A stretch of 62,896 nucleotides of DNA, counting the filler. It is 8 parts of 8 records of this genome, joined end to end, with 100 filler letters (N's around TTAATTAATTAA, not from the genome) between each part and the next. Parts side by side here need not be neighbours in the genome. Positions count along the whole stretch, not along the records: positions 15,493 to 23,811 come from SRR31156797_52484; 7 more parts are not named here. One strand, 5' to 3'. The translations under genes were made by a program, and so were the position numbers. The notes under the pieces are model-generated. The model did not search any database, was not told the origin of the DNA, and saw nothing but the letters and a program-made list of their open reading frames with translations. Shown here one piece after another: positions 130 to 56,017 of this stretch (its first letter is position 1; each line of letters opens with the position of its first letter).

Positions 130-345
130 ATGAAACAACAAAACGACACCTTTAGAACACTTGAAAAAGCTGGTATACCTTCCTGGTTATTTATGCTTAT
201 GTCATTTATAATACCCATTTACGGATTTCTAACATACTTTGTGTTAAAAGATTCATACACAAGTAAAGCCAAAGTAGGTTTGTTTTTTGCCACTTTAGGA
301 ACTGCTTTGTGGTTTATGTTGAAATTATTTGTCTGGACGAGATAA
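130..345 (+). CDS. small hypothetical membrane protein (2 predicted TM segments)
   Basis: 71-aa ORF with two hydrophobic stretches; co-oriented with next ORF. Confidence 0.55.
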   Translation: MKQQNDTFRTLEKAGIPSWLFMLMSFIIPIYGFLTYFVLKDSYTSKAKVGLFFATLGTALWFMLKLFVWTR

Positions 346-411
346 ACTATTACACTGACTCTATCTAAAAAACAGAACAACAATATTTTTAAAACCTCTA
401 ATCTATTTATT

Positions 412-939
412 ATGAATAAAGCCAAACATTGTGAACTATGTGAAAATCAACAATATGATTTTACTGCAGGTACAAAATGTTCTTTAACTGATGCGAGGCC
501 AAGTTTTAAAGACAAATGCGGTCAAATTACTTTCGATACTAAATATCAGAAGAAGATTAAGGAAAATAACATTGCCTATGAAAAGGTTTTAAAAAATAAA
601 CACAAAGCCTTGGGGCAGTTTATTGTTTATATGAGCATTACCATTGTATTATTTTCAGTGGCTTTTTATCTGGGTTTTCTGGAATTATCAAATGGCATTA
701 TAGATAAAATACCATTTGTGATAGCTGGCGTAGGTCTTGTTACGCTTCCACGTGCTATAACTCCTTTGGTTTCGTTTAAACAGAACTTTAAAGTAGCTAA
801 GAAAAACAAGATGGAAATGGATACCATATTACTGCAATATAATGTTAGATACGAAATCGAAGTGCTTTTTAATACTGACAGACATGGACATACCGACATT
901 TCCACTAACCTAAACTTTTTACGAAAACATTATAGATAA
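412..939 (+). CDS. hypothetical membrane protein with N-terminal Cys cluster
   Basis: 175 aa; CxxC..C..C motif (HCELCEN..KCSLT..KC) followed by two TM segments. Confidence 0.7.
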   Translation: MNKAKHCELCENQQYDFTAGTKCSLTDARPSFKDKCGQITFDTKYQKKIKENNIAYEKVLKNKHKALGQFIVYMSITIVLFSVAFYLGFLELSNGIIDKIPFVIAGVGLVTLPRAITPLVSFKQNFKVAKKNKMEMDTILLQYNVRYEIEVLFNTDRHGHTDISTNLNFLRKHYR

Positions 940-7321: not shown

Positions 7322-8800
7322 ATGAATAAATTGAATTCTATTTGCTATTTATTGCTCGAATTCAAACACCTCAATAGTTCGAAATTGTTAACTACAATGA
7401 AGAAATCCTGTATGTTAAAAAAATATTGTATTTCAGCCTTAACAATAACGTTTATTTTTCTCTCTTTAAATTTGAATGCTCAGAATATAGATCGTCAAAT
7501 TGACCTTTATTTCTTTGATCATTCAAATGATATAGTGGAATTAAATGATAGTATTTTAAAAAGAACTGAGTATTGGACAAATCTTAAATTAGACCATAAG
7601 TTTTTTGTTGTTGATTCGGCTTCTTTTAATCGAAACCAGGTTTTAACATTAAATGCCAATTACCACAAATACATGGAACATACGATGTCTTTAAAGTTTT
7701 ATTCCTACAAAGACCTTCATGTTCGTTACAAACCAACTTTAGTAAAAAAACATCTACTTTATAGTTCCGACGGTTACTTGTATAGTATAAAATCAAAATC
7801 CGGGTATTCCAACAAAATAAGTTCTGCATATAACATCCGCAAAAAAAATGAGGAGTTTTTCATACAGCGTCCTTATTTAGTAAAGCATGTTTGGAAAACA
7901 ATTCCTGAACCACACCGACTAATTACTGATAGAAAGTACTTAACCAAACGTTCTGCTACGGAAGGACTGGCTAGTATACTCTCTGGTAAAATCGACTCAC
8001 CCGAAAAGCTGGATAAGCGTATAAAAAAGAAAGGTCCCTGGACTTATAGTGGTGTTGAAAATATTCAGTTATCTCAAACTTACCTTGAAAACTGGAGCAA
8101 AGGAGGTGAAAACTCAGTAACCTTGGGTAGTGACTTATTGTTGAAAGCAAATTATAAAAAGAACAAAACAGAGTGGGAAAACTTTGTACGACATAAAGTT
8201 GGTGTGGTAAGTACAGAAAGTTATGCAACACAAATTAATAACGATCAAATTTTAGCCAATAGTAAATATGGATTACGAGCTTCCAAAAAATGGTACTACA
8301 GTTTTGTATTTGATTTTAAATCCCAATTTTTTAATGGCTACAATAACAAAGAAAGGGAATCAATAATTTCAGGTTTTCTATCTCCTGCCTATTTCACGTT
8401 TGCACTGGGTATGGACTTTAAGAAAAGTAAAGACTTTACTTTACTTCTTTCTCCTCTTACCTCAAAGATTACTTATGTGATGGATACCGCAAAAGTGGAT
8501 CAAACCAGATACAAAGTGCCGGAAGAAAGAAAAGCAGCTTTTAACAACGGAGCATCATTAGTTAATAATATTAACTGGAAGATATCAACAGAGCTTAGTT
8601 TAAAATCGCAGCTTGATGCCTTCGTTGGTTACCTGAACAAAGATGCAATTACACAAATTGACTGGGAACTAATATTTGATATGCGTATTAACCGATTTCT
8701 CTCAACTCGTATCAATACTCAATTAAAATACTTTACCAACGAATCAGATAAAATTCAATTTAGAGAGTATTTTGCCATTAACTTTAATTATAAATTTTAA
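7322..8800 (+). CDS. DUF3078-like outer-membrane protein (start uncertain)
   Basis: SQ....NWSKGGEN, SKYG, F..QFF.GY, FLSPAY...GMD motifs; C-terminal aromatic residue (NYKF). Confidence 0.7.
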   Translation: MNKLNSICYLLLEFKHLNSSKLLTTMKKSCMLKKYCISALTITFIFLSLNLNAQNIDRQIDLYFFDHSNDIVELNDSILKRTEYWTNLKLDHKFFVVDSASFNRNQVLTLNANYHKYMEHTMSLKFYSYKDLHVRYKPTLVKKHLLYSSDGYLYSIKSKSGYSNKISSAYNIRKKNEEFFIQRPYLVKHVWKTIPEPHRLITDRKYLTKRSATEGLASILSGKIDSPEKLDKRIKKKGPWTYSGVENIQLSQTYLENWSKGGENSVTLGSDLLLKANYKKNKTEWENFVRHKVGVVSTESYATQINNDQILANSKYGLRASKKWYYSFVFDFKSQFFNGYNNKERESIISGFLSPAYFTFALGMDFKKSKDFTLLLSPLTSKITYVMDTAKVDQTRYKVPEERKAAFNNGASLVNNINWKISTELSLKSQLDAFVGYLNKDAITQIDWELIFDMRINRFLSTRINTQLKYFTNESDKIQFREYFAINFNYKF

Positions 8801-8981: not shown

Positions 8982-9081
8982 NNNNNNNNNNNNNNNNNNN
9001 NNNNNNNNNNNNNNNNNNNNNNNNNTTAATTAATTAANNNNNNNNNNNNNNNNNNNNNNNNNNNNNNNNNNNNNNNNNNNN
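8982..9081. other. artificial contig spacer
   Basis: 44 N + TTAATTAATTAA + 44 N. Confidence 0.98.
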
Positions 9082-15392: not shown

Positions 15393-15492
15393 NNNNNNNN
15401 NNNNNNNNNNNNNNNNNNNNNNNNNNNNNNNNNNNNTTAATTAATTAANNNNNNNNNNNNNNNNNNNNNNNNNNNNNNNNNNNNNNNNNNNN
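15393..15492. other. artificial contig spacer
   Basis: N-run with TTAATTAATTAA. Confidence 0.98.
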
Positions 15493-16017
15493 CGCATCCA
15501 GGATAGTTTGGATATCATTCATGCGTCCCTGATGATCAGATATCAGCACTTCTATTTTACAATTGGGAATTTTAGTTCGTAGGGTCTTAATACATTTAGC
15601 CCAGTGCTCAGCACCACCGTCCGGTAGATCGTCGCGCGTTACACAGGTGATGACTGCATACTCCAGCTTCAGCAATGAGATTGCCTCAGCCAGGTTTTGC
15701 GGTTCCTCCGCGAGCGATAGGGTACTAGGGCGATAGGGCACCGGTTCTCCGTCGCCCCGCGCTATCGCGCTATTGCCCTCGCTCTCTATTGCTTCAATGT
15801 TGCAGAATCTGCAATTCCGGGTACAACGATCCCCAAGTACCATAAACGTGGCGGTCTTATTACTCCAGCACTCTTCTTTATTGGGGCATCTTGCTTCGTC
15901 GCAAACGGTGTGTAAACGATGGTGGCTTAGGACCGATTTAACGGTTCGGCATTCGGTGCCGCCGGGCAGCTTGATCTTCAGCCATTCAGGTTTGCGTACT
16001 TCCATCGTCTTTTTCAA
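15493..16017 (-). CDS. lipA: lipoyl synthase, N-terminal part (cut by contig end)
   Basis: RKPEWLK, CDEARCPNKEEC (CX4CX5C), CTRNCRFC (radical SAM), TRDDLPDGGA motifs. Confidence 0.92.
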
Positions 16018-16084
16018 TTGTTTGTTTTAAATACAATGTGAAATTTAAAGATGAATTGTGCCGTTTCAAATATAAATCGGATGA

Positions 16085-16468
16085 AAAGTAAGTGGTAAAT
16101 AGTTAGTAGTAAATGGAAGTAAACGGGCGAAAAGTGAACAGTTAAACTTCTAAACAAATCCGAAGGACGACTAAACCCTAAACAGAGCCACAGGCTCTTA
16201 AACGTGCACGCAGTGCACAAAGAGGGGTTTCAAATACTTTTCGATGAAATCGTAAGACGTAAAACGTAAAACGTGAGACGCAGATCGTTTTGAAATGATT
16301 TTTGCAAAATGTAGGGGCGACGCTGGAGTCGCCCGCATGCTTCAGCGTAGGATGGCAGCCTTGTGCGAAGGAGGACGACCAGTTAAACTTTAAACCCTTA
16401 AACAGCGAAGCGCTAAACTTCTAAACAGTCCAAAGGACGACTAAACTTCTAAACGGCCGGAACGGCTA
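16085..16468. repeat. cluster of short-period and dispersed repeats
   Basis: 7-mer runs (e.g. ACGTAAA/ACGTGAG at about 16250-16280); duplicated TAAACTTCTAAAC..TCC.AAGGACGACTAAAC at about 16143 and 16414. Confidence 0.7.
16311..16334 (+). repeat. GTAG-type REP-like hairpin
   Basis: GTAG-GGGCGAC-GCTGGA-GTCGCCC. Confidence 0.6.
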
Positions 16469-16565
16469 TCAATGTTGTATTTAAATAGAAGTGTGAATTA
16501 TATAACAGAGGCATTTGTGGTAGTATAATCATTAATACTGATTAGATTAATTGATCAAATTGTAA

Positions 16566-16598
16566 TAAACTCGCAAGAGAACCGGTCTTATATAGCGA
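16566..16598. other. 11-6-11 imperfect palindrome, dif-like recombination site or operator (copy 1)
   Basis: TAAAC-TCGCAAGAGAA-CCGGTC-TTATATAGCGA; matches copy at 18953-18985. Confidence 0.55.
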
Positions 16599-16704
16599 AA
16601 TATTCAGTCCATATTCTATTATTTGTAAAATTCATAAAATATTTTATCTTATTACAGTTAAGAGAATTCAATTTTCAATAAAAATCTTGGTGAGAGGTGA
16701 TATT

Positions 16705-16992
16705 ATGAGTGAATCAAACTATAACGTCTCTATTAAAGAAAGAATTAGTCCAGGGAATTATTGGACACATCCTATTAAAGTAAAGGATCTTCAGGATTTA
16801 ATGGAAAAATTAAAGAAGGAGAAAGTAACAAAAATCTCCCTGAAGCACAGTTCGCAATATGTCGATTATGAGATTGAACGAAAATTTAATATATCTATTA
16901 ATGAAATAAATGAAGAAGATTTTGAGTATTTAACTGAGGATAAACAAGGATATTTTATGTTCATATTTGTTGAGCATAAGAAAAAGGACTAA
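16705..16992 (+). CDS. hypothetical protein (first gene of 3-gene operon)
   Basis: GAGGTG RBS before ATG at 16705; stop 2 nt before next start. Confidence 0.7.
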   Translation: MSESNYNVSIKERISPGNYWTHPIKVKDLQDLMEKLKKEKVTKISLKHSSQYVDYEIERKFNISINEINEEDFEYLTEDKQGYFMFIFVEHKKKD

Positions 16993-16994
16993 TT

Positions 16995-17582
16995 ATGGCA
17001 AACATAAGAAACAGCAATTTCAAGGTTGGAACCTTTCATGGTACCTTAAACCCAGTAAAGGGGAGCAAAGAAGCTTCCTTAAGGAATGCTTTATATTTAA
17101 TTGGAATGATAAAATTACCTTATTCCAACGTTGACATACTCAAAATTAGATTATTCGCCTATGAAGTTCCCATTGGTATTAGAGGGAAGAGAATTGATTT
17201 GTTGGGATATGATGAGAATAAGAATCCATGGATAATTGAACTTAAAGCACATGATTCAGGTGAACATATTTCGAAAATTGTAGATCAAATAAATAACTAT
17301 GAAAAACAATTAAGAAATTTATTACCGCATATTGAATTGGAGTTTAAAGAAAGATTTTTAATTCCTATTGAATTTTCAAAAGAGGTAAAGAAAATGATTT
17401 TGGCTCCTAGAGAATTTTACTTAAAAGAAGATAAAACTAAATATCCCAAGAAAAAGGATATTCTTTTATGTTCTATAGCAAAGCTAAAAGAAGTTTATAA
17501 TAAAGATAATCGTATGGTACTTGATGAAAAATTTAGTGTTTTAGATCAAATAACAGTAAAAATTGAAAATAAAGACAGATGA
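16995..17582 (+). CDS. PD-(D/E)xK-fold nuclease-like protein
   Basis: YEVP..RIDLLGYD......IIELK motif and downstream Q...Y, typical of NucS/restriction-like endonucleases. Confidence 0.7.
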   Translation: MANIRNSNFKVGTFHGTLNPVKGSKEASLRNALYLIGMIKLPYSNVDILKIRLFAYEVPIGIRGKRIDLLGYDENKNPWIIELKAHDSGEHISKIVDQINNYEKQLRNLLPHIELEFKERFLIPIEFSKEVKKMILAPREFYLKEDKTKYPKKKDILLCSIAKLKEVYNKDNRMVLDEKFSVLDQITVKIENKDR

Positions 17583-18886
17583 GCTACAGAATCCACCGCG
17601 GAACTCAGGAAATTGGAGGTTCATGCGTTGAGCTATGGACCGCAGAGACACGAATCCTTATTGACTTTGGGATGCCCTTAGTTGAGAAGGACGGATCTGA
17701 GTTTAGCTTTAAGAAGTATGAGAAACTTGATTCCACAGAGTTGATCAACAGGGGAGTGTTGCCGAATATTAAAGGTCTCTATAAAAATGAAGATCCTGAA
17801 GTTGATGCTATTATCATTACCCATCCTCATGCTGATCATTATGGCTTCTTGGATTACATTCATAAAGACATCCCCGTTTATATGGGGGAAGCTACTCATA
17901 AACTGATTGAATTAAGCAATATCTTCCTGCCACAGTCAATCAATTTAAGAAATGTCAGCCATTATAAGAGAGATGTATCATTTAATATTGGTGATATTAA
18001 CATTATACCATATTGGATGGATCATTCAGCCTTTGATGCCTATGCCTTATTAATTGAAGCTGAAGGAAAGCGTTTGTTCTATAGTGGTGATTTCCGTTCA
18101 CATGGAAGAAAAGCAAGGGTATTTAAACGACTATTGAGCAATTCACCTAAGAATATTGACCATTTGCTTATGGAAGGTACAACGATTGGTCGAGGTAAGC
18201 AGATTTCAAAGACTGAAATTGATATAGAAAATGAAATGTATGAAAAATTCATTGAACCCGGAAAACTAAATCTTGTATATGCTTCCGGACAAAATATTGA
18301 CCGAATTGTATCAATCTATAAGGCATGCAAAAGAGCAAAAAGGACATTTGTCCTGGATGTATATGTAGCCAACATCATGAAGACTTTGTCAGAATATGCA
18401 GCTTTACCATATCCTTCAAGTGGATTTAAAGATATTAAAGTATGTTTCCCTTATTATACAGGTAAAAGGTTACAAAGGCAGAATAGAGAAGATCTTATGT
18501 ATAAATTCAAGACTTATAAGGTTACACGTCAGGAGATTGATCAATATTCAGGTAAATATGTAATGATCGTAAGAGGATCAATGCAAAAAGAATTGGATCT
18601 GATGGAAAACATTGATAGTGGTAATTTTATCTATTCTATGTGGGAAGGTTATCTAAAGAAGAAGAACACGAAGAAATTTGTGGAGCACCTGGAAAATGAT
18701 AAAGCTTTTAAGACATCAATAATCCATACAAGTGGTCATGCAGACATCCAGGCACTTCAAGACCTAGCTGAAGCTATAGATCCTAAATTCATTGTACCGA
18801 TACATACATTTGATGGAGATAAATACAAAGATATCTTCAAAGGACAAATCTTAGAGCTAAAAGATGGGGAAGAGGTAAGCTTGTAG
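17579..18886 (+). CDS. metallo-beta-lactamase/beta-CASP ribonuclease (RNase J-like)
   Basis: EIGGSC, THPHADH, DHS, YSGDFR, MEGT, HTSGHA, PIHT motifs; ATGA overlap with upstream gene. Confidence 0.88.
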   Translation: MSYRIHRGTQEIGGSCVELWTAETRILIDFGMPLVEKDGSEFSFKKYEKLDSTELINRGVLPNIKGLYKNEDPEVDAIIITHPHADHYGFLDYIHKDIPVYMGEATHKLIELSNIFLPQSINLRNVSHYKRDVSFNIGDINIIPYWMDHSAFDAYALLIEAEGKRLFYSGDFRSHGRKARVFKRLLSNSPKNIDHLLMEGTTIGRGKQISKTEIDIENEMYEKFIEPGKLNLVYASGQNIDRIVSIYKACKRAKRTFVLDVYVANIMKTLSEYAALPYPSSGFKDIKVCFPYYTGKRLQRQNREDLMYKFKTYKVTRQEIDQYSGKYVMIVRGSMQKELDLMENIDSGNFIYSMWEGYLKKKNTKKFVEHLENDKAFKTSIIHTSGHADIQALQDLAEAIDPKFIVPIHTFDGDKYKDIFKGQILELKDGEEVSL

Positions 18887-18952
18887 TATTAAAGTCCCCT
18901 GTACTAGCATCATTTCGTATTCTATTCGCAATATTACCAACAAGAATTGCGT

Positions 18953-18985
18953 TAAACTCGCAATATAATATGCCTTATATAGCTA
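18953..18985. other. 11-6-11 imperfect palindrome, dif-like recombination site or operator (copy 2)
   Basis: TAAAC-TCGCAATATAA-TATGCC-TTATATAGCTA. Confidence 0.55.
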
Positions 18986-19151
18986 GAGGTCCTTGAGTGC
19001 TTAATAACCCCTTGTAAATTAATAGAAGATTAACTAAATTAGGTCATAGTTAAATAATATTATGTTGATGGAAATTGGAGACAGGGAAGTAATCAATTTT
19101 CGAATAGTCAAATTAATTCTTTAGTATCTGAATATTAAAAAGGAGTTTGTG

Positions 19152-20378
19152 ATGAAATTTAGAACTATTTTCTATTTAACAATTTGTTTACTAGTACTGA
19201 CATCGTGTTTTTCAACTACAAATCAGTTTTTGGAAGCTGTAAGTGATAATGATGTACAAAAAGTAAAAAATCTTATTGATAAGGGTGTAGATATAACTAC
19301 AGCTGATGAATTTGGTCAAGATGCTATGTTTAGAGCTGCATATCGAGGGCATGAAGATATTGTTAAAATTCTAATTGATAATGGTATTGATGTTAATAAA
19401 AAATCGAAAGGAATTCAGCCAATATATTTAGCTGCTCAGGAAGGTCACATCAATATTATTAAAACCCTTGTTGAATCTGGAGCGGATGTTGATGCTGCCA
19501 CACATTTCGGATATACTGCCTTATATACAGCTTCTCGTCACATACATTATGATATTGTTAAATACCTGATTCAAAATAATGCAAATACAGAACTAAAGTG
19601 TAATAATGGCCTCACACCACTAATGGGTATTTTTAATTATGATCCTGAAATATTTTTAATGAGACATGAAAGTGTTGAAATAGTTGATGGAAAGCAAGTG
19701 TTTAACTTGGGAAATATATATGATGATATTCATGATCTTGCAGAAATGCTTATAAAAAATGGTGCGGATGTAAACAGTGCAAGTGATGCTGGTATTACAC
19801 CAATTCATCTAGCATCTTTTTATCCAACGGATGTGACAAGTTTCATAAAACTATTATATGAAAATGGAGCAGATATAAATGTGAAAAACAATTATGGAGA
19901 TACGCCACTTCTAATATCAGCTAAAAAAGGTTTTATTAAGAATTTTAATTTCTTTTTGGAAAATGGAGCAAATATAAACGAATATACTAAAGATAACGAG
20001 TCATTATTATTTCTTGCTGTTTATAGTGATGAAATTGAAATGGTTAAAAACGTTTTACAATTAAAAAAGATAGATATTAATCATCAAACCAATGAGGGTA
20101 AAACAGCATTAATGTTAGCCGTAGAAAATGATAATTATGAAATAGTAAAAAGGATTATTGAAAGCGGGGCTGATGTTAATATCAGAACTAGTGATTCAGG
20201 TTATACAGCTCTAATGTTTGCAGCAGAAAAAGCGAAGCGAGCAATTGCAAGACTTCTTGTAGAAAATGGAGCTGAACTTGATATTGTGAACAATCAAAAA
20301 TATACAGCTTTAAAACTTGCTCGTCGCAACATGAATGTAGATGTCGTTAAATATTTGGAATCTTTGAATAAAAAATAA
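19152..20378 (+). CDS. ankyrin-repeat lipoprotein
   Basis: lipobox LTSC; many G.TPL..A / GADVN ankyrin repeats. Confidence 0.9.
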   Translation: MKFRTIFYLTICLLVLTSCFSTTNQFLEAVSDNDVQKVKNLIDKGVDITTADEFGQDAMFRAAYRGHEDIVKILIDNGIDVNKKSKGIQPIYLAAQEGHINIIKTLVESGADVDAATHFGYTALYTASRHIHYDIVKYLIQNNANTELKCNNGLTPLMGIFNYDPEIFLMRHESVEIVDGKQVFNLGNIYDDIHDLAEMLIKNGADVNSASDAGITPIHLASFYPTDVTSFIKLLYENGADINVKNNYGDTPLLISAKKGFIKNFNFFLENGANINEYTKDNESLLFLAVYSDEIEMVKNVLQLKKIDINHQTNEGKTALMLAVENDNYEIVKRIIESGADVNIRTSDSGYTALMFAAEKAKRAIARLLVENGAELDIVNNQKYTALKLARRNMNVDVVKYLESLNKK

Positions 20379-20410
20379 TTTATCTATTAGAGAAATATAA
20401 TTCTAGTGAG

Positions 20411-20446
20411 AGAAAGAGCCGTCAATTAGTGGCTCTTTCTTGTTGT
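20411..20446 (+). terminator. terminator-like hairpin between convergent genes
   Basis: AGAAAGAGCC / GGCTCTTTCT perfect 10-bp stem. Confidence 0.7.
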
Positions 20447-20465
20447 TCATGTTGATAAGAAAGGG

Positions 20466-23400
20466 TCACTTCATTAAGATCATCTTCTTCGTAACAATAA
20501 AATCTCCGGCCTGCAATCTAAAGAAATAGATACCCGAACTGAAGTCCGATGCATCCCAGTTGAGTTCATAATAACCGGCTGGTTTATTATCATTAATCAG
20601 AGTCGCAACTTTTTTTCCACGCATATCATAAATGGAGAACTCAACATCGCTGACTGCCGACAGTTGGAAGCTTATAGTTGTTATTGGATTAAACGGATTA
20701 GGATAATTAGCGTCGAGCGCAAATTCTTGTGGTATATCATTCTCTGGTATAACGACAGTTACTGCCTTGTCAGTATACTTTGTCTCTTCATTGGCATAGC
20801 TTACATCGGCCAATATATAAGTATAACTTGCACCAGGAATAACTGAATTATCAACATAAGAATAACTACGAGGTTCGCTTGTTGTACCGGCACCTTCTAT
20901 AGAAATATATGCTTCATCATTTCTGTAGATTACAAAACGTGAATTGTTTGTTTCAGATGCCGTTTGCCATTTCAATTTCACATGACCTTTAGAATATATG
21001 GCAGTAAATTCACCTAAAAATATTGGAAGTGCTGTTTCACTGAATTGATCAGAAATTATGAAATCACTAAATCCATCAAGATTATTAACAGTAATAACAT
21101 TATTTAGCTGATCTAATGTGTCCGGTATATAGGGACCGAACCATTCACCACCACTTAATCTCCATATTTTTAAGCTGTCTTCAGATATTTCATTTAATTC
21201 GCTGTCTTCATAACTTAGTTTTAAATTGTAATTGCTAATATTTCCATCAGATATTATCCTATACCACCTATTTACTGAATTTAATATCCCTGATTTATTT
21301 TCACTAGGATATACAGTAATATCTATCGAAGAAGTATCATCTAAGTTGTTAATATGTATTTGCGCCTTAGTCTTTCCGCCAAAATAATAATCACCACTTT
21401 CAGTTATAGTTTGGCATACCCTATTTCCCGAATATTCAAATACACCTATATCATTTTCCCAACCAAAGACTCCAGAATCATCTGCTATTAAATAATTATT
21501 AGATCCTTTGTCAATACATGGTGATGAGTATTTTAATTGAAAATTTAAAGAGGCTGTGTCCTCCAATTCAGGATTTTCTGAGATATTATTATAAAGATCT
21601 AAAACTGCTTCAATATTTGGATGATGCTCGCTATTGCCAAAAAGGCAGTTATTATAAAAATATGTTTCACTTGCAATATTATTATTCCAAATCCCAACAT
21701 CATTAAAACAAATAATATTTGATCTTACAGTGAACCAACTTCCAGCTGCCTCGTATGGCTCATCAATTCCTATTTCATTATTTATTATACAATTATTTTC
21801 AATAAGGGGGCCTTTATAAGAAATTGCTATAGCTGTTTTGTTATTGTAAAAGGTATTTCTACTAATATTCCAACTATTAGTACCATTTCCGTAATATGAA
21901 TAGACGCCTCTGAAGCAATCATGAAAAACATTATGGTGCAAATTAATTTTAGCTGTTGAACGGTTAAAAATAGAGACTCCATAGTCTTCAGCTTCAAATT
22001 CACATCCCGTAATTTCACATTTCCCATCAGGTTCAATCCCAATAGCACTTCCAGTAACATTAAATTGACAATCTTTAATTAAAATATTAATATTTTTTAC
22101 AGTAATAGACCCATTCCCAAAAAACTTACAATTTTCAATTATTAGAGAGTCAACTTTGTCTGGTCCTTTAATATAAAGCCAATCGTAAAAAGTCGAATTT
22201 GTAATTTCTTGTTTTTTTGTGTCAAATAAGCGAATTTCACCATCAACAAAAGAAATATTATCGATTTTTTTAAATGAATAAAAAAAGCACCAATTTGCAC
22301 TAATATTTATACTATCGCCAACCTGCCCCACTAATGTAATATATTTATCTATGGTAAGTGTATCAGCAGAGTAATTCCCCTCAAAAACAGTGACTGTAGT
22401 ACTGTCTAATGAAGCTTCTAAAGCTTCTTGGATGCTATTAAAAGGATGATCAAATGACCCATCTTCGAAATCATTATTTTGAAGATCAACATATATGTTT
22501 GGATTTACAGTAAAAGTCCATGAAAATATATTTAAATTAAAATTATAAAGAGAATTATTAATTGTTGACTTAATGCTATCGCTCAAAGTAACTGTTATTT
22601 TTTCGGAATTTTGATATTCGTTGTCTGGAATAAACTTTATTGTTTTGCTTGAACTATTATAATTATAAGAACCAGTGTAAAGCCCCCTTCTTGATCCTAC
22701 TATTCGAAATGTATTCGTATCAATTGAAGATAAATCCATATCTTGACTAAATTGTACAATAACGGTATCATCATTCAATACGTATGTGTTACTATCAGGT
22801 AAAAATGACACAATATCTGGATGCACGGAATCAGCTTTTCCAAAGTTTGGGTCTATCAAGTCACCTTTAAAATCAAATCGATTATTTTTATTTCTATCAA
22901 TAATTAAATCATATAATTTTAAAGAGGTGCAATTTTTCCAAATATAGCTTCCTTTTGAAAGACCACCACTTGTATTAGCGAAAATTAATTCTTCTGTATT
23001 TTGGGCAATATTCTCTAATGTATCACCATCATTCCATTGAGTTTTATGGGGAACTACAAAAAGATCATATTTCCTATTGGGAATCATCCCTTCGTTTAAA
23101 TATCCGTATATGGTATCGTTTTCAGAAAACTCTGATTTATAAATACCTTGTGTATCAGCAGTAATATTTACAACTGGAGAATAATGGTCAATATTAAATG
23201 AAGAATTAATTGTACGGCCTGTAACTATTTTCACCTGAGAACCTATTGGTTCACCTTCAGGTAGTGGTTCTCCTACTGTTAAAATTATTGTAATAGATGT
23301 ATCAACAAGTTGCGAGTTTTTTATATAAATTGGTAATTGAGATGAATTATAAATTGTATCTGCTAAAACAATGCTATCTGGGTTTAATGAAATCCAAATA

Positions 23401-23594
23401 CTATTTTCATACTCATTAACATAACTTCCAATATTCGCTGTAAAATATTCACCACCATTTCCAATATTTGTTATTCCAAATGTCCAAATGGTTGTGGTAG
23501 TGTCTCCCCAATCTACATCTTTTGTTGTTGATCCTGTAACCCCCAAACCATATAAAGCATTTATAAGAAAGAACAATAGAAGTATTTTTTTCAT
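20466..23594 (-). CDS. large secreted protein: Ig-like domain, parallel beta-helix, C-terminal Por/T9SS-type (FlgD-Ig) sorting domain
   Basis: signal peptide MKKILLLFF; VQFSQDMD Ig-like motif; GSFDHPFNSIQEAL and N-rich beta-helix repeats; YPNPFNP..IYDMRG..WDAS..SGIYF tail. Confidence 0.82.
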   Translation of the reverse strand: MKKILLLFFLINALYGLGVTGSTTKDVDWGDTTTTIWTFGITNIGNGGEYFTANIGSYVNEYENSIWISLNPDSIVLADTIYNSSQLPIYIKNSQLVDTSITIILTVGEPLPEGEPIGSQVKIVTGRTINSSFNIDHYSPVVNITADTQGIYKSEFSENDTIYGYLNEGMIPNRKYDLFVVPHKTQWNDGDTLENIAQNTEELIFANTSGGLSKGSYIWKNCTSLKLYDLIIDRNKNNRFDFKGDLIDPNFGKADSVHPDIVSFLPDSNTYVLNDDTVIVQFSQDMDLSSIDTNTFRIVGSRRGLYTGSYNYNSSSKTIKFIPDNEYQNSEKITVTLSDSIKSTINNSLYNFNLNIFSWTFTVNPNIYVDLQNNDFEDGSFDHPFNSIQEALEASLDSTTVTVFEGNYSADTLTIDKYITLVGQVGDSINISANWCFFYSFKKIDNISFVDGEIRLFDTKKQEITNSTFYDWLYIKGPDKVDSLIIENCKFFGNGSITVKNINILIKDCQFNVTGSAIGIEPDGKCEITGCEFEAEDYGVSIFNRSTAKINLHHNVFHDCFRGVYSYYGNGTNSWNISRNTFYNNKTAIAISYKGPLIENNCIINNEIGIDEPYEAAGSWFTVRSNIICFNDVGIWNNNIASETYFYNNCLFGNSEHHPNIEAVLDLYNNISENPELEDTASLNFQLKYSSPCIDKGSNNYLIADDSGVFGWENDIGVFEYSGNRVCQTITESGDYYFGGKTKAQIHINNLDDTSSIDITVYPSENKSGILNSVNRWYRIISDGNISNYNLKLSYEDSELNEISEDSLKIWRLSGGEWFGPYIPDTLDQLNNVITVNNLDGFSDFIISDQFSETALPIFLGEFTAIYSKGHVKLKWQTASETNNSRFVIYRNDEAYISIEGAGTTSEPRSYSYVDNSVIPGASYTYILADVSYANEETKYTDKAVTVVIPENDIPQEFALDANYPNPFNPITTISFQLSAVSDVEFSIYDMRGKKVATLINDNKPAGYYELNWDASDFSSGIYFFRLQAGDFIVTKKMILMK

Positions 23595-23811
23595 ATTTAG
23601 CCTCATTAACAGAAATACTGATTTTATAAACAATATCTTTAACTTTACTATTATCAATTTAAAATAGATTTATTTTACAGTTTTATAATATTTTATGCAA
23701 GATGTTATTAATTATTGGTGACCATTGCCGATTGCTCCCAAAACCCGCATCATTACTACTCAAAACCCCCAAAAACACAATCTTCACCGCAGTGGACACA
23801 TCTTGGTGTAC

Positions 23812-23911
23812 NNNNNNNNNNNNNNNNNNNNNNNNNNNNNNNNNNNNNNNNNNNNTTAATTAATTAANNNNNNNNNNNNNNNNNNNNNNNNNNNNNNNNN
23901 NNNNNNNNNNN
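23812..23911. other. artificial contig spacer
   Basis: N-run with TTAATTAATTAA. Confidence 0.98.
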
Positions 23912-29630: not shown

Positions 29631-29730
29631 NNNNNNNNNNNNNNNNNNNNNNNNNNNNNNNNNNNNNNNNNNNNTTAATTAATTAANNNNNNNNNNNNNN
29701 NNNNNNNNNNNNNNNNNNNNNNNNNNNNNN
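29631..29730. other. artificial contig spacer
   Basis: N-run with TTAATTAATTAA. Confidence 0.98.
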
Positions 29731-44604: not shown

Positions 44605-44704
44605 NNNNNNNNNNNNNNNNNNNNNNNNNNNNNNNNNNNNNNNNNNNNTTAATTAATTAANNNNNNNNNNNNNNNNNNNNNNNNNNNNNNNNNNNNNNNN
44701 NNNN
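44605..44704. other. artificial contig spacer
   Basis: N-run with TTAATTAATTAA. Confidence 0.98.
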
Positions 44705-50335: not shown

Positions 50336-50435
50336 NNNNNNNNNNNNNNNNNNNNNNNNNNNNNNNNNNNNNNNNNNNNTTAATTAATTAANNNNNNNNN
50401 NNNNNNNNNNNNNNNNNNNNNNNNNNNNNNNNNNN
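50336..50435. other. artificial contig spacer
   Basis: N-run with TTAATTAATTAA. Confidence 0.98.
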
Positions 50436-55917: not shown

Positions 55918-56017
55918 NNNNNNNNNNNNNNNNNNNNNNNNNNNNNNNNNNNNNNNNNNNNTTAATTAATTAANNNNNNNNNNNNNNNNNNNNNNNNNNN
56001 NNNNNNNNNNNNNNNNN
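55918..56017. other. artificial contig spacer
   Basis: N-run with TTAATTAATTAA. Confidence 0.98.

Follow-up and report, generated by a model that had tools for sequence, protein, structure and literature searches.

Conserved DNA units of about 105 bp as candidate site-specific recombination sites around variable gene blocks in a Marinimicrobia-type lineage

Here, we describe a conserved DNA unit of about 105 bases, two copies of which bracket a three-gene nuclease operon on a stretch of 62,896 nucleotides (nt), hereafter the window, by which the whole stretch analysed is meant. Judged by their conservation in other assemblies, the two sites in the window are genuine copies of this unit, which probably serves a DNA-cutting-and-joining enzyme; recombination itself we infer. 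The explanation that we prefer, and to which we give about even confidence, is that the units form a family of double-stranded site-specific recombination sites (~105 bp), which would bound gene cassettes in a Marinimicrobia-type lineage. Note that the window consists of eight contigs joined by N44-TTAATTAATTAA-N44 linkers, and that the contig bearing the sites covers positions 15493-23811 only (8319 bp, 33% GC). The GC content of the eight contigs ranges from 33% to 61%, and therefore the bin is probably mixed.

As a preliminary description of this DNA had claimed, the matching pair TAAACTCGCAA-N10-CTTATATAGC occurs in exact copies at 16566-16596 and 18953-18983, both on the + strand, and direct reading of the letters bears out its count of complementary arm positions, which is 8 of 11 in site 1 (TCGCAAGAGAA / CCGGTC / TTATATAGCGA) and 9 of 11 in site 2 (TCGCAATATAA / TATGCC / TTATATAGCTA). 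It is also true that nothing but the three-gene operon, consisting of open reading frames (ORFs) 1, 2 and 3, is enclosed by the two sites, and that family scans of the ORFs of at least 100 amino acids (aa) on the contig revealed no recombinase gene. The similarity between the sites goes beyond what had been claimed, extending in a repeat search over 39 nt at 77% identity. A model of the family sequence (R1) matches the window at 16498-16601 and 18886-18987 and nowhere else, the second unit beginning at the stop codon of ORF3, and a core identical to that of unit 1, spacer included, is present on another contig (G374:C61). Could the pair then be a chance match, or the functionless remnant of a local duplication? 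There are only two copies in the window, and AT-rich DNA is rich in short repeats. However, the gapped motif, with up to three mismatches allowed, has two matches in the window and none in 100 dinucleotide-preserving shuffles, and the unit is conserved at 35 distinct places in other assemblies, so that this explanation is almost certainly wrong.

From 5′ to 3′, the unit is composed of a TTATAAC-like block, a ATTTGTGGCA-like block, the block CTCRCAAnnATACC, 18 A-rich nucleotides, the left arm CTCGCAAGAGAA, a 6-nt spacer and the right arm TTATATAGCGA. The left flank takes up about 75 nt with its blocks at fixed spacing, and the CTCRCAAnnATACC block, which repeats the start of the left arm, is located exactly 18 nt upstream of the core. 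The core itself has the geometry of dif, that is, 11-bp arms forming an imperfect inverted repeat around a 6-bp spacer, with the family consensus TCGCAAGAGAA-N6-TTATATAGCGA. Half units that end directly after the left arm are found in two loci, namely L148 (the unit s', fused to the leader described below) and L161 (the second unit, fused to a terminator). RNAalifold predicted 0 pairs on 17 units, and Rfam gave no match at E<=0.1 on L133, L001 and L002 and one tRNA only on L250, L255, L259 and L251. Consequently, the unit, which is conserved in sequence instead, is read as duplex DNA, and a structured RNA or a folded, attC-like site was rejected.

Two further conserved sequences lie directly beside the units. 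One is a promoter-like leader, GAAAACGCCTTGACAAyAyC..TTAATAAATA, conserved over about 150 nt and located directly after units and before cassette genes. The other is an element of about 75 nt, ..CCTCTCTCCTCGATCCCGGTACC..TTTTTCCACTATACCCCGGGTTTAAAGGTACCC, which recurs right after the right arm in L255 (9965-10040), L258, L250 (two places), L259, L256, L146 and L148/L162. Neither has a match in Rfam, and the likeness of the second element to the T-arm of tRNA-Ser is weak and only local.

The metagenomes were searched with a pattern fixed on the arm positions shared by the sites, which yielded 28 loci, 19 of them with the left flank of about 75 nt; the nine without it (L136, L138, L139, L141, L149, L155, L157, L158 and L163) were taken as chance matches and excluded from the counts. 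The 35 distinct units considered here come from metagenome contigs and from 10 of the 401 genomes of the Marinimicrobia-type phylum to which G276 belongs (labelled Neomarinimicrobiota). In these ten genomes the pattern, at no more than one mismatch, occurs in 22 places, with 1-4 per genome, versus 1 for a reversed-pattern control. By comparison, it occurs in 1 of 201 genomes of the phylum labelled Cloacimonadota, namely in G001 itself, from which L001 is derived, and in 2 of the 43 genomes of the family of G002, one of these being a chance-like match with one mismatch. Model R1, with 62 candidates scored per genome, found G001 and one weak match only among 62 genomes of the G001 family. As for the hosts, the TrmD protein of L142 is 83% identical to Marinimicrobia proteins, and the LipA fragment of the window shows 74-78% identity to the phylum of G276 versus about 52% to that of G001. 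Two looser searches were rejected as noise: the pattern AAACTCGCAA-N-A-N-AA-N6-TT matched at least 106 loci in viral contigs, none with the right arm, and matches at three mismatches in the G001 family were about as frequent as those of the reversed-pattern control.

When relatives are scanned with the site profile, the units repeatedly lie at the edges of variable gene blocks, often with anti-phage genes, and the earlier suggestion that the sites are boundaries of a cassette is backed by several loci. First, the DNA of L001 is 89% identical to window positions 16567-18879, and this identity starts at site 1 and stops at the stop codon of ORF3; a copy of the site is located to the left of the operon in L001 and to the right of a four-gene version of it in L002. 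Second, the right flanks of L002/L147 and L140, which run from the right arm into a gene for a glutamine amidotransferase, show 99% identity, while to the left of the core these loci consist of unrelated DNA, with different left-flank types and the spacers GCTGAC versus CCACAT. Third, clustered regularly interspaced short palindromic repeat (CRISPR) arrays keep company with the units. In L153 the order is CRISPR array, one unit, terminator and convergent secretion-cargo gene; in L154 a unit and right flank related to those of L153 come after the C-terminal portion of a type I restriction subunit and its DUF45-type partner; and in L148/L162 an array related to that of L153 is followed by a half unit, a DUF3883-type gene and a full unit. 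The labels type I/DUF45 in L154 and DUF3883 in L148 are our own readings of the translations, made without a scan. The arrays have 36-nt repeats (GTTGTGGCTTGATGCAAAAAATGGACTAATAACAAC and a variant), occupy 1-810 in L153 and 1-255 (in unit orientation) in L148, and end about 100 nt before the unit; no cas genes occur near them in the DNA examined. Finally, eight loci contain at least two units at E<=1e-4, and in all of them the units lie on the same strand and bracket 1-9 variable genes, among these genes for restriction-modification, surface proteins and a DUF3883 protein (Table 1).

Table 1. Features of the window and of other loci with several units or with the promoter-like leader
Feature	Position	Strand	Remarks
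Unit 1	16498..16601	+	diverged left flank and core; model R1, 60.6 bits
Unit 1 core	16570-16581; 16582-16587; 16588-16598		left arm CTCGCAAGAGAA; spacer CCGGTC; right arm TTATATAGCGA
Unit 2	18886..18987	+	typical left flank and core; 65.5 bits; TTACCAACA block 18 nt before core
Unit 2 core	18957-18968; 18969-18974; 18975-18985		left arm CTCGCAATATAA; spacer TATGCC; right arm TTATATAGCTA
ORF1	16705..16992	+	95 aa from ATG (101 aa from TTG at 16687); no family match
ORF2	16995..17582	+	195 aa; PD-(D/E)xK-like nuclease candidate, D..ELK motif read from translation
ORF3	17579..18886	+	435 aa; metallo-beta-lactamase / beta-CASP (RNase J-like) nuclease; Pfam Lactamase_B_2 and RMMBL
Ankyrin-repeat protein gene	19149..20378	+	downstream of unit 2, outside the bracketed module
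Type IX secretion cargo protein gene	20466..23657	-	convergent; Por_Secre_tail
lipA fragment	15493..16017	-	cut by contig end; left chromosomal neighbour, served to place the host lineage
Linkers	8982-9081, 15393-15492, 23812-23911, 29631-29730, 44605-44704, 50336-50435, 55918-56017		N44-TTAATTAATTAA-N44
Promoter-like leader copies, L168 (G002:C90)	217-271, 877-931, 7739-7793		
Promoter-like leader copy, L148	about 335-480		in unit orientation
Multi-unit locus, window			3 genes
Multi-unit locus, L152/L253			one DUF6804 gene
Multi-unit locus, L161			2 genes
Multi-unit locus, L148/L162			
Multi-unit locus, L168			9 genes, both orientations
Multi-unit locus, L251			TonB-type outer membrane protein gene, opposite strand
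Multi-unit locus, L259			secretion-cargo gene, opposite strand
Multi-unit locus, L250			three units

Spacers are also shared between otherwise dissimilar places. The spacer CCGGTC occurs in three units whose left and right flanks are all different (window unit 1, L162 and L249), and TAGATA occurs in two units with differing flanks (L146 and L257). By our own arithmetic, which assumes uniform spacers, the 595 possible pairs contain 4 coincident ones against about 0.15 expected, although common descent could also produce such coincidences.

If the units are recombination sites, a recombinase of the tyrosine type would bind both arms and exchange strands at the 6-bp spacer. Integration of a circular cassette with one unit at a resident unit would give a direct repeat of the form unit-cassette-unit with hybrid units at the joints. 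The lineage could thus use the unit for insertion, exchange or deletion of cassettes. In the window, the module of ORF1 to ORF3 would be one such cassette, joined on the left at the spacer or the right arm of unit 1, and the left flank and left arm that it brought along would now form unit 2. Because the two spacers differ (CCGGTC versus TATGCC), the cassette is probably fixed at its position by now.

Then, which enzyme could act on the unit? The candidates are an integrase family found beside unit-like blocks on tRNA-Ser islands and the XerC/XerD-like pair of the host. In L162, a tyrosine recombinase of 354 aa is located 225 nt beyond the unit and convergent with it, followed by tRNA-Ser; it scores 84 bits against the integron-integrase model, for which the cut-off is 265. 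The arrangement of tRNA-Ser, integrase and a unit-like block aimed at the integrase is present in 3 of 3 loci, namely L162 and two copies in G402, which are homologous to one another. Both G402 copies have a left-flank-like block (CTCGCAAGCATACCA and CTCACAAGCAAATCA) pointing at the integrase, and beside the first copy a Vsr / C5-methylase (Dcm) / BpuJI-type restriction block is located between the left-flank-like block and a diverged unit. Since the left-flank-like block ends where the junctions between L133 and L151 and between L150 and L168 fall, these loci are suggestive of a second crossover point, which the half-site in the left flank may provide. With regard to the other candidate, G001 encodes XerC-like and XerD-like proteins with scores just under the NCBIfam cut-offs.

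Several results weigh against the recombination-site reading. Neither a circle nor an empty site was seen; only contigs of two runs, the probable source run and one with an L001-like relative, cover the region, with no joint at the sites, and they are silent on whether excision occurs. One joint, from 16489 to 19163, is weak, has a side of 21 nt and lies away from the sites. No unit is present in the DNA examined around lipA in G412, G330 and G394, and hence no empty-site allele of the locus was found. The spacers are unlike within every pair examined, so that present-day recombination of the window pair by a homology-dependent enzyme is unlikely. Some junctions fall in the left flank instead of the core, at about -30 for L133 versus L151 and likewise, at the CTCAC block, for L150 versus L168, and the right junction between the window and L001 is at the stop of ORF3, where the left flank starts. 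The weaker matches in G402 include one direct and one inverted pair. In 15 genome regions, none of the 115 proteins encoded up to about 5 kb from a unit matches Phage_integrase at E<=1e-5; of the 16 genomes searched, G402 alone has close homologues of the L162 integrase (76% and 63% identity), and they occur in only 1 of the 9 unit-bearing ones, and the integrase is absent from most unit-bearing genomes. Lastly, the conservation of the arms among the 35 distinct units (about 1.7 bits per position, compared with 0.28 bits in the spacer) is inflated and partly circular, because most of the units were found by the arm-fixed pattern.

An alternative with some of these points on its side is that the unit is a regulatory or transcript-end element, such as the operator of a dimeric regulator, an insulator, or a C-rich, G-poor region for Rho loading or termination, for which there is no dedicated recombinase and around whose copies genes are shuffled by occasional homologous or illegitimate recombination. 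A palindrome with a free centre also suits a dimeric DNA-binding regulator, the units are mostly located after the stop of a co-directional gene, often with terminator hairpins alongside, and homologous exchange is consistent with junctions at -30 and where the left flank begins. However, the breakpoint between L002 and L140 falls inside a shared arm of 12 nt, which is too short for homologous recombination, the copies of the unit are only about 70-85% alike, truncations occur exactly after the left arm, and unrelated flanks share spacers. A shared operator or promoter, at a fixed distance from the starts of conserved core genes, was the alternative offered in the preliminary description. In the window, + strand genes do start 107 and about 165 nt downstream of the copies, and the units of G002:C90 each lie about 30 nt upstream of the repeated leader, which contains TTGACA. 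The nearest downstream ORF (at least 90 aa, within 450 nt) is co-directional for 15 of the 35 units and convergent for 13, while 7 have none. Distances spread over 49-322 nt, and the genes that follow are unrelated to one another and have no function in common, so that the fixed spacing to core-gene starts, which would have spoken against cassette boundaries, was not observed. Since 13 of the 28 units with a called ORF face a convergent gene, several right behind a terminator hairpin, a promoter or operator role is disfavoured, and we consider the regulatory or transcript-end explanation as a whole rather unlikely.

It could also be proposed that the unit, taken as 105-130 bp or so, is a small non-autonomous mobile element which inserts behind genes, so that the bracketing of operons is incidental. 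Homology can indeed stop at the left edge of the unit (at 18879-18886 between the window and L001, and between L150 and L168), the TTATAAC-like block at this edge resembles the right arm TTATATAGC, and the copy number is low and patchy, with 10 of 401 genomes affected. On the other hand, neither terminal inverted repeats nor target duplications were seen in the alignments, which were read by eye, a genome has 1-4 copies only, and the breakpoints in the core, the half units and the uniform direct orientation around cargo would be left unexplained. Such an element is therefore very unlikely to be the explanation.

The geometry of the core recalls that of Xer recombination sites, and the preliminary description had accordingly likened the two sites to dif. 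According to published sources, dif consists of two 11-bp arms that flank a 6-bp spacer and form an imperfect inverted repeat (PMC2958812), and a replicon has only one such site, which lies at the replication terminus (PMC2958812, PMC3091885). Units, however, occupy 2-4 places on different contigs in each of G421, G354, G330 and G402, in the different core-gene contexts of trmD/tRNA-Phe, glnA, rpsA, rsmB and rnf. Furthermore, bacterial dif is conserved in sequence, above all in the XerD arm. Canonical dif-like cores (ATAAT-N4-ATTATGTAAACT) exist elsewhere in G001, G421 and G330, for example ACGTGTGATAA-TATATA-TTATGTAAACT in G001, and the unit has the inner 4-5 positions of each arm in common with these and no more. 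Could the units nevertheless be true Xer substrates, of the dif-like, plasmid dif (pdif) or IMEX (integrative mobile elements exploiting Xer recombination) type, recombined by the XerC/XerD of the host? The 11-6-11 geometry is consistent with this, as are the inner arm positions GATAA / TTATA, which resemble the dif-like core of G001 (...GATAA-TATATA-TTATG...), the XerC-like and XerD-like genes mentioned above, the lack of an adjacent recombinase at most units, as expected for a host-encoded enzyme, and the one-sided accessory flank, which recalls cer and psi (10.64898/2026.02.23.706985). Against it stand the unlike outer arm positions, the dispersal of the units, their direct orientation, and the occurrence of the site in 1 of 201 genomes of a phylum, that of G001, which has Xer genes; moreover, the spacers of the window pair differ, and no evidence points specifically to Xer action on the unit. 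We regard this explanation as distinctly unlikely. The membership in the Xer/dif family put forward earlier is thus unsupported, and the site may work in an Xer-like manner.

In known pdif systems, neighbouring sites alternate in orientation, being inverted relative to each other. This is not seen here, where the orientation is direct in each of the 8 loci at E<=1e-4, and the likeness to pdif drawn in the preliminary description fails in this respect. The pdif sites of Acinetobacter resemble the units in being short 11-6-11 sites with conserved arms and a variable 6-bp centre, which bound discrete, shuffled accessory modules without a recombinase gene (PMC6449649, PMC13141974, PMC12907356), whereas the units are chromosomal, belong to uncultured Marinimicrobia-type hosts, have a conserved one-sided flank of 75 nt and differ in their arms from the dif-like sites of their own hosts. 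Insertion sequences target pdif sites (PMC10132070), and here three loci (L160 167-1695, L249 14827-15647 and L255 8214-9580) have genes of IS3-family transposases that adjoin the left flank, always with the same relative orientation; an IS3-type insertion sequence may target the unit. Elements of the IMEX type, such as CTX-phi, TLC-phi and the proviruses of Bacteroidetes microviruses, are likewise recombinase-less and lie between two imperfect direct dif-like repeats (PMC3091885, PMC9226527), but they occupy the single chromosomal dif, while units stand at several places in one genome and differ from its canonical dif-like site. The sites cer and psi also combine a core with a one-sided accessory sequence and act on direct repeats only (10.64898/2026.02.23.706985); unlike the units, they resolve plasmid multimers and bound no variable cargo, and they have longer accessory regions, to which PepA, ArgR or ArcA binds.

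Integrons offer a further comparison, since their arrays of variable and mostly unrelated genes are split by a recurring site in one orientation. The integron site attI has accessory integrase-binding repeats, which the extra left-arm-like direct repeat of the unit recalls. In contrast to the unit, which is conserved in sequence and has no predicted fold, attC is recognised as a folded single strand and is conserved in structure and little in sequence (PMC2727003). An integron array lies next to the gene for its integrase and to attI; here, none of the 115 proteins counted above is an integron-type integrase, and the cassettes between units hold up to 9 genes in both orientations. Islands integrated at tRNA genes are comparable in that L162 and the two G402 loci have an integrase at tRNA-Ser, then unit-like sequence, and then defence cargo (the DUF3883 gene, a CRISPR array or restriction-modification); they are unlike the present case in that the repeated unit is not the 3′ end of a tRNA and also occurs far from any integrase or tRNA.

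A more specific proposal, which we think possible but doubtful, is that the units belong to an integron-like cassette system not described before, which would capture and exchange gene blocks, whole anti-phage systems among them, at a sequence-conserved duplex site made of an 11-6-11 core and a one-sided accessory arm containing an extra half-site. In some loci a CRISPR array abuts a unit. Shared spacers would mark compatibility groups, and the enzyme would be either the tRNA-Ser-island integrase acting in trans or the Xer pair of the host. No description of the unit in print was found; the 12-mers of both arms are unmatched in the literature searched, and the best 12 of 506 integron/attC papers are without mention of Marinimicrobia.

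Among the bracketed genes, the start of ORF3 overlaps the stop of ORF2 in an operon-like manner, and homologues of ORF1 and ORF2 were found in L001 only, with 79% and 95% aa identity, respectively. ORF2 has weak matches to the NucS endonuclease (E=0.001) and to PDC-S18 of PADLOC (E=4.6e-6), and none in Pfam. ORF3 scores 69 bits against TIGR00649, far below the cut-off, and the cut-offs for RNase J are not reached; it belongs to a very large family, 5932 of the 8000 candidates scored being related to it at E<=1e-10, and relatives were found in 26 loci from many phyla, for the most part on short contigs. No PADLOC system matches the module, and the role in defence that we infer is suggested by the pair of nucleases and by the company that the units keep. 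A fourth small gene, without counterpart in the window, comes after the beta-CASP gene in both L001 and L002 (4708-5109 in L001; 2407-2755 in L002, where it is frameshifted), while the window unit abuts the stop of ORF3 instead.

To the right of the module, the ankyrin gene had been proposed as a second cassette. Since the R1 scan revealed no third unit in the window, and thus none 3′ of this gene, it is not bracketed; a terminator-like hairpin follows it at 20410-20441. The secretion-cargo gene beyond it is of the kind that usually adjoins units on the right in related loci, with the same layout in L142, L143, L159, L251 and L260. The last 75 nt of the contig (23737-23811) match contigs of G421 at 96% and 86% and have high depth in both runs, and therefore represent a repeat at the contig end.

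To the left, the interval from lipA to unit 1 contains TAAAC-rich direct repeats of 28 nt (16130-16468) and CGTAAAA heptamer repeats (16247-16288). The heptamer run also occurs in G412, in which a toxin-antitoxin-like pair lies between the run and lipA. The DNA upstream of lipA is variable, containing this pair in L270 (G412), a transposase-like gene and a type I methylase in L272 (G394), and, beside 16018-16500 of the window, the nuclease cassette; the gene names in G412 and G394 come from reading the translations, without a family scan. In the probable source run, the unitigs of lipA (15493-16324) have a depth of 43-75 and the single 7.5-kb unitig of the island (16295-23811) a depth of 13. 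Consequently, either the strain with the island is a minority or lipA is common to other strains.

What would these units mean for their hosts? If they are true recombination sites, they would represent a new way in which an abundant uncultured phylum of ocean and sediment assembles the variable part of its genome, the cargo at stake being restriction-modification systems, nuclease modules and surface proteins, with CRISPR arrays beside the units. The site would then be compact, at about 100 bp, and with its candidate recombinases it would be open to direct study in vitro. The model of the unit can already be used to locate cassette boundaries and new cargo genes in metagenomes, including the module of ORF1, PD-(D/E)xK and beta-CASP genes. 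Should the unit be a regulatory or transcript-end element instead, it would still be an unusually conserved non-coding unit that is clearly linked to structural variation at the level of strains.

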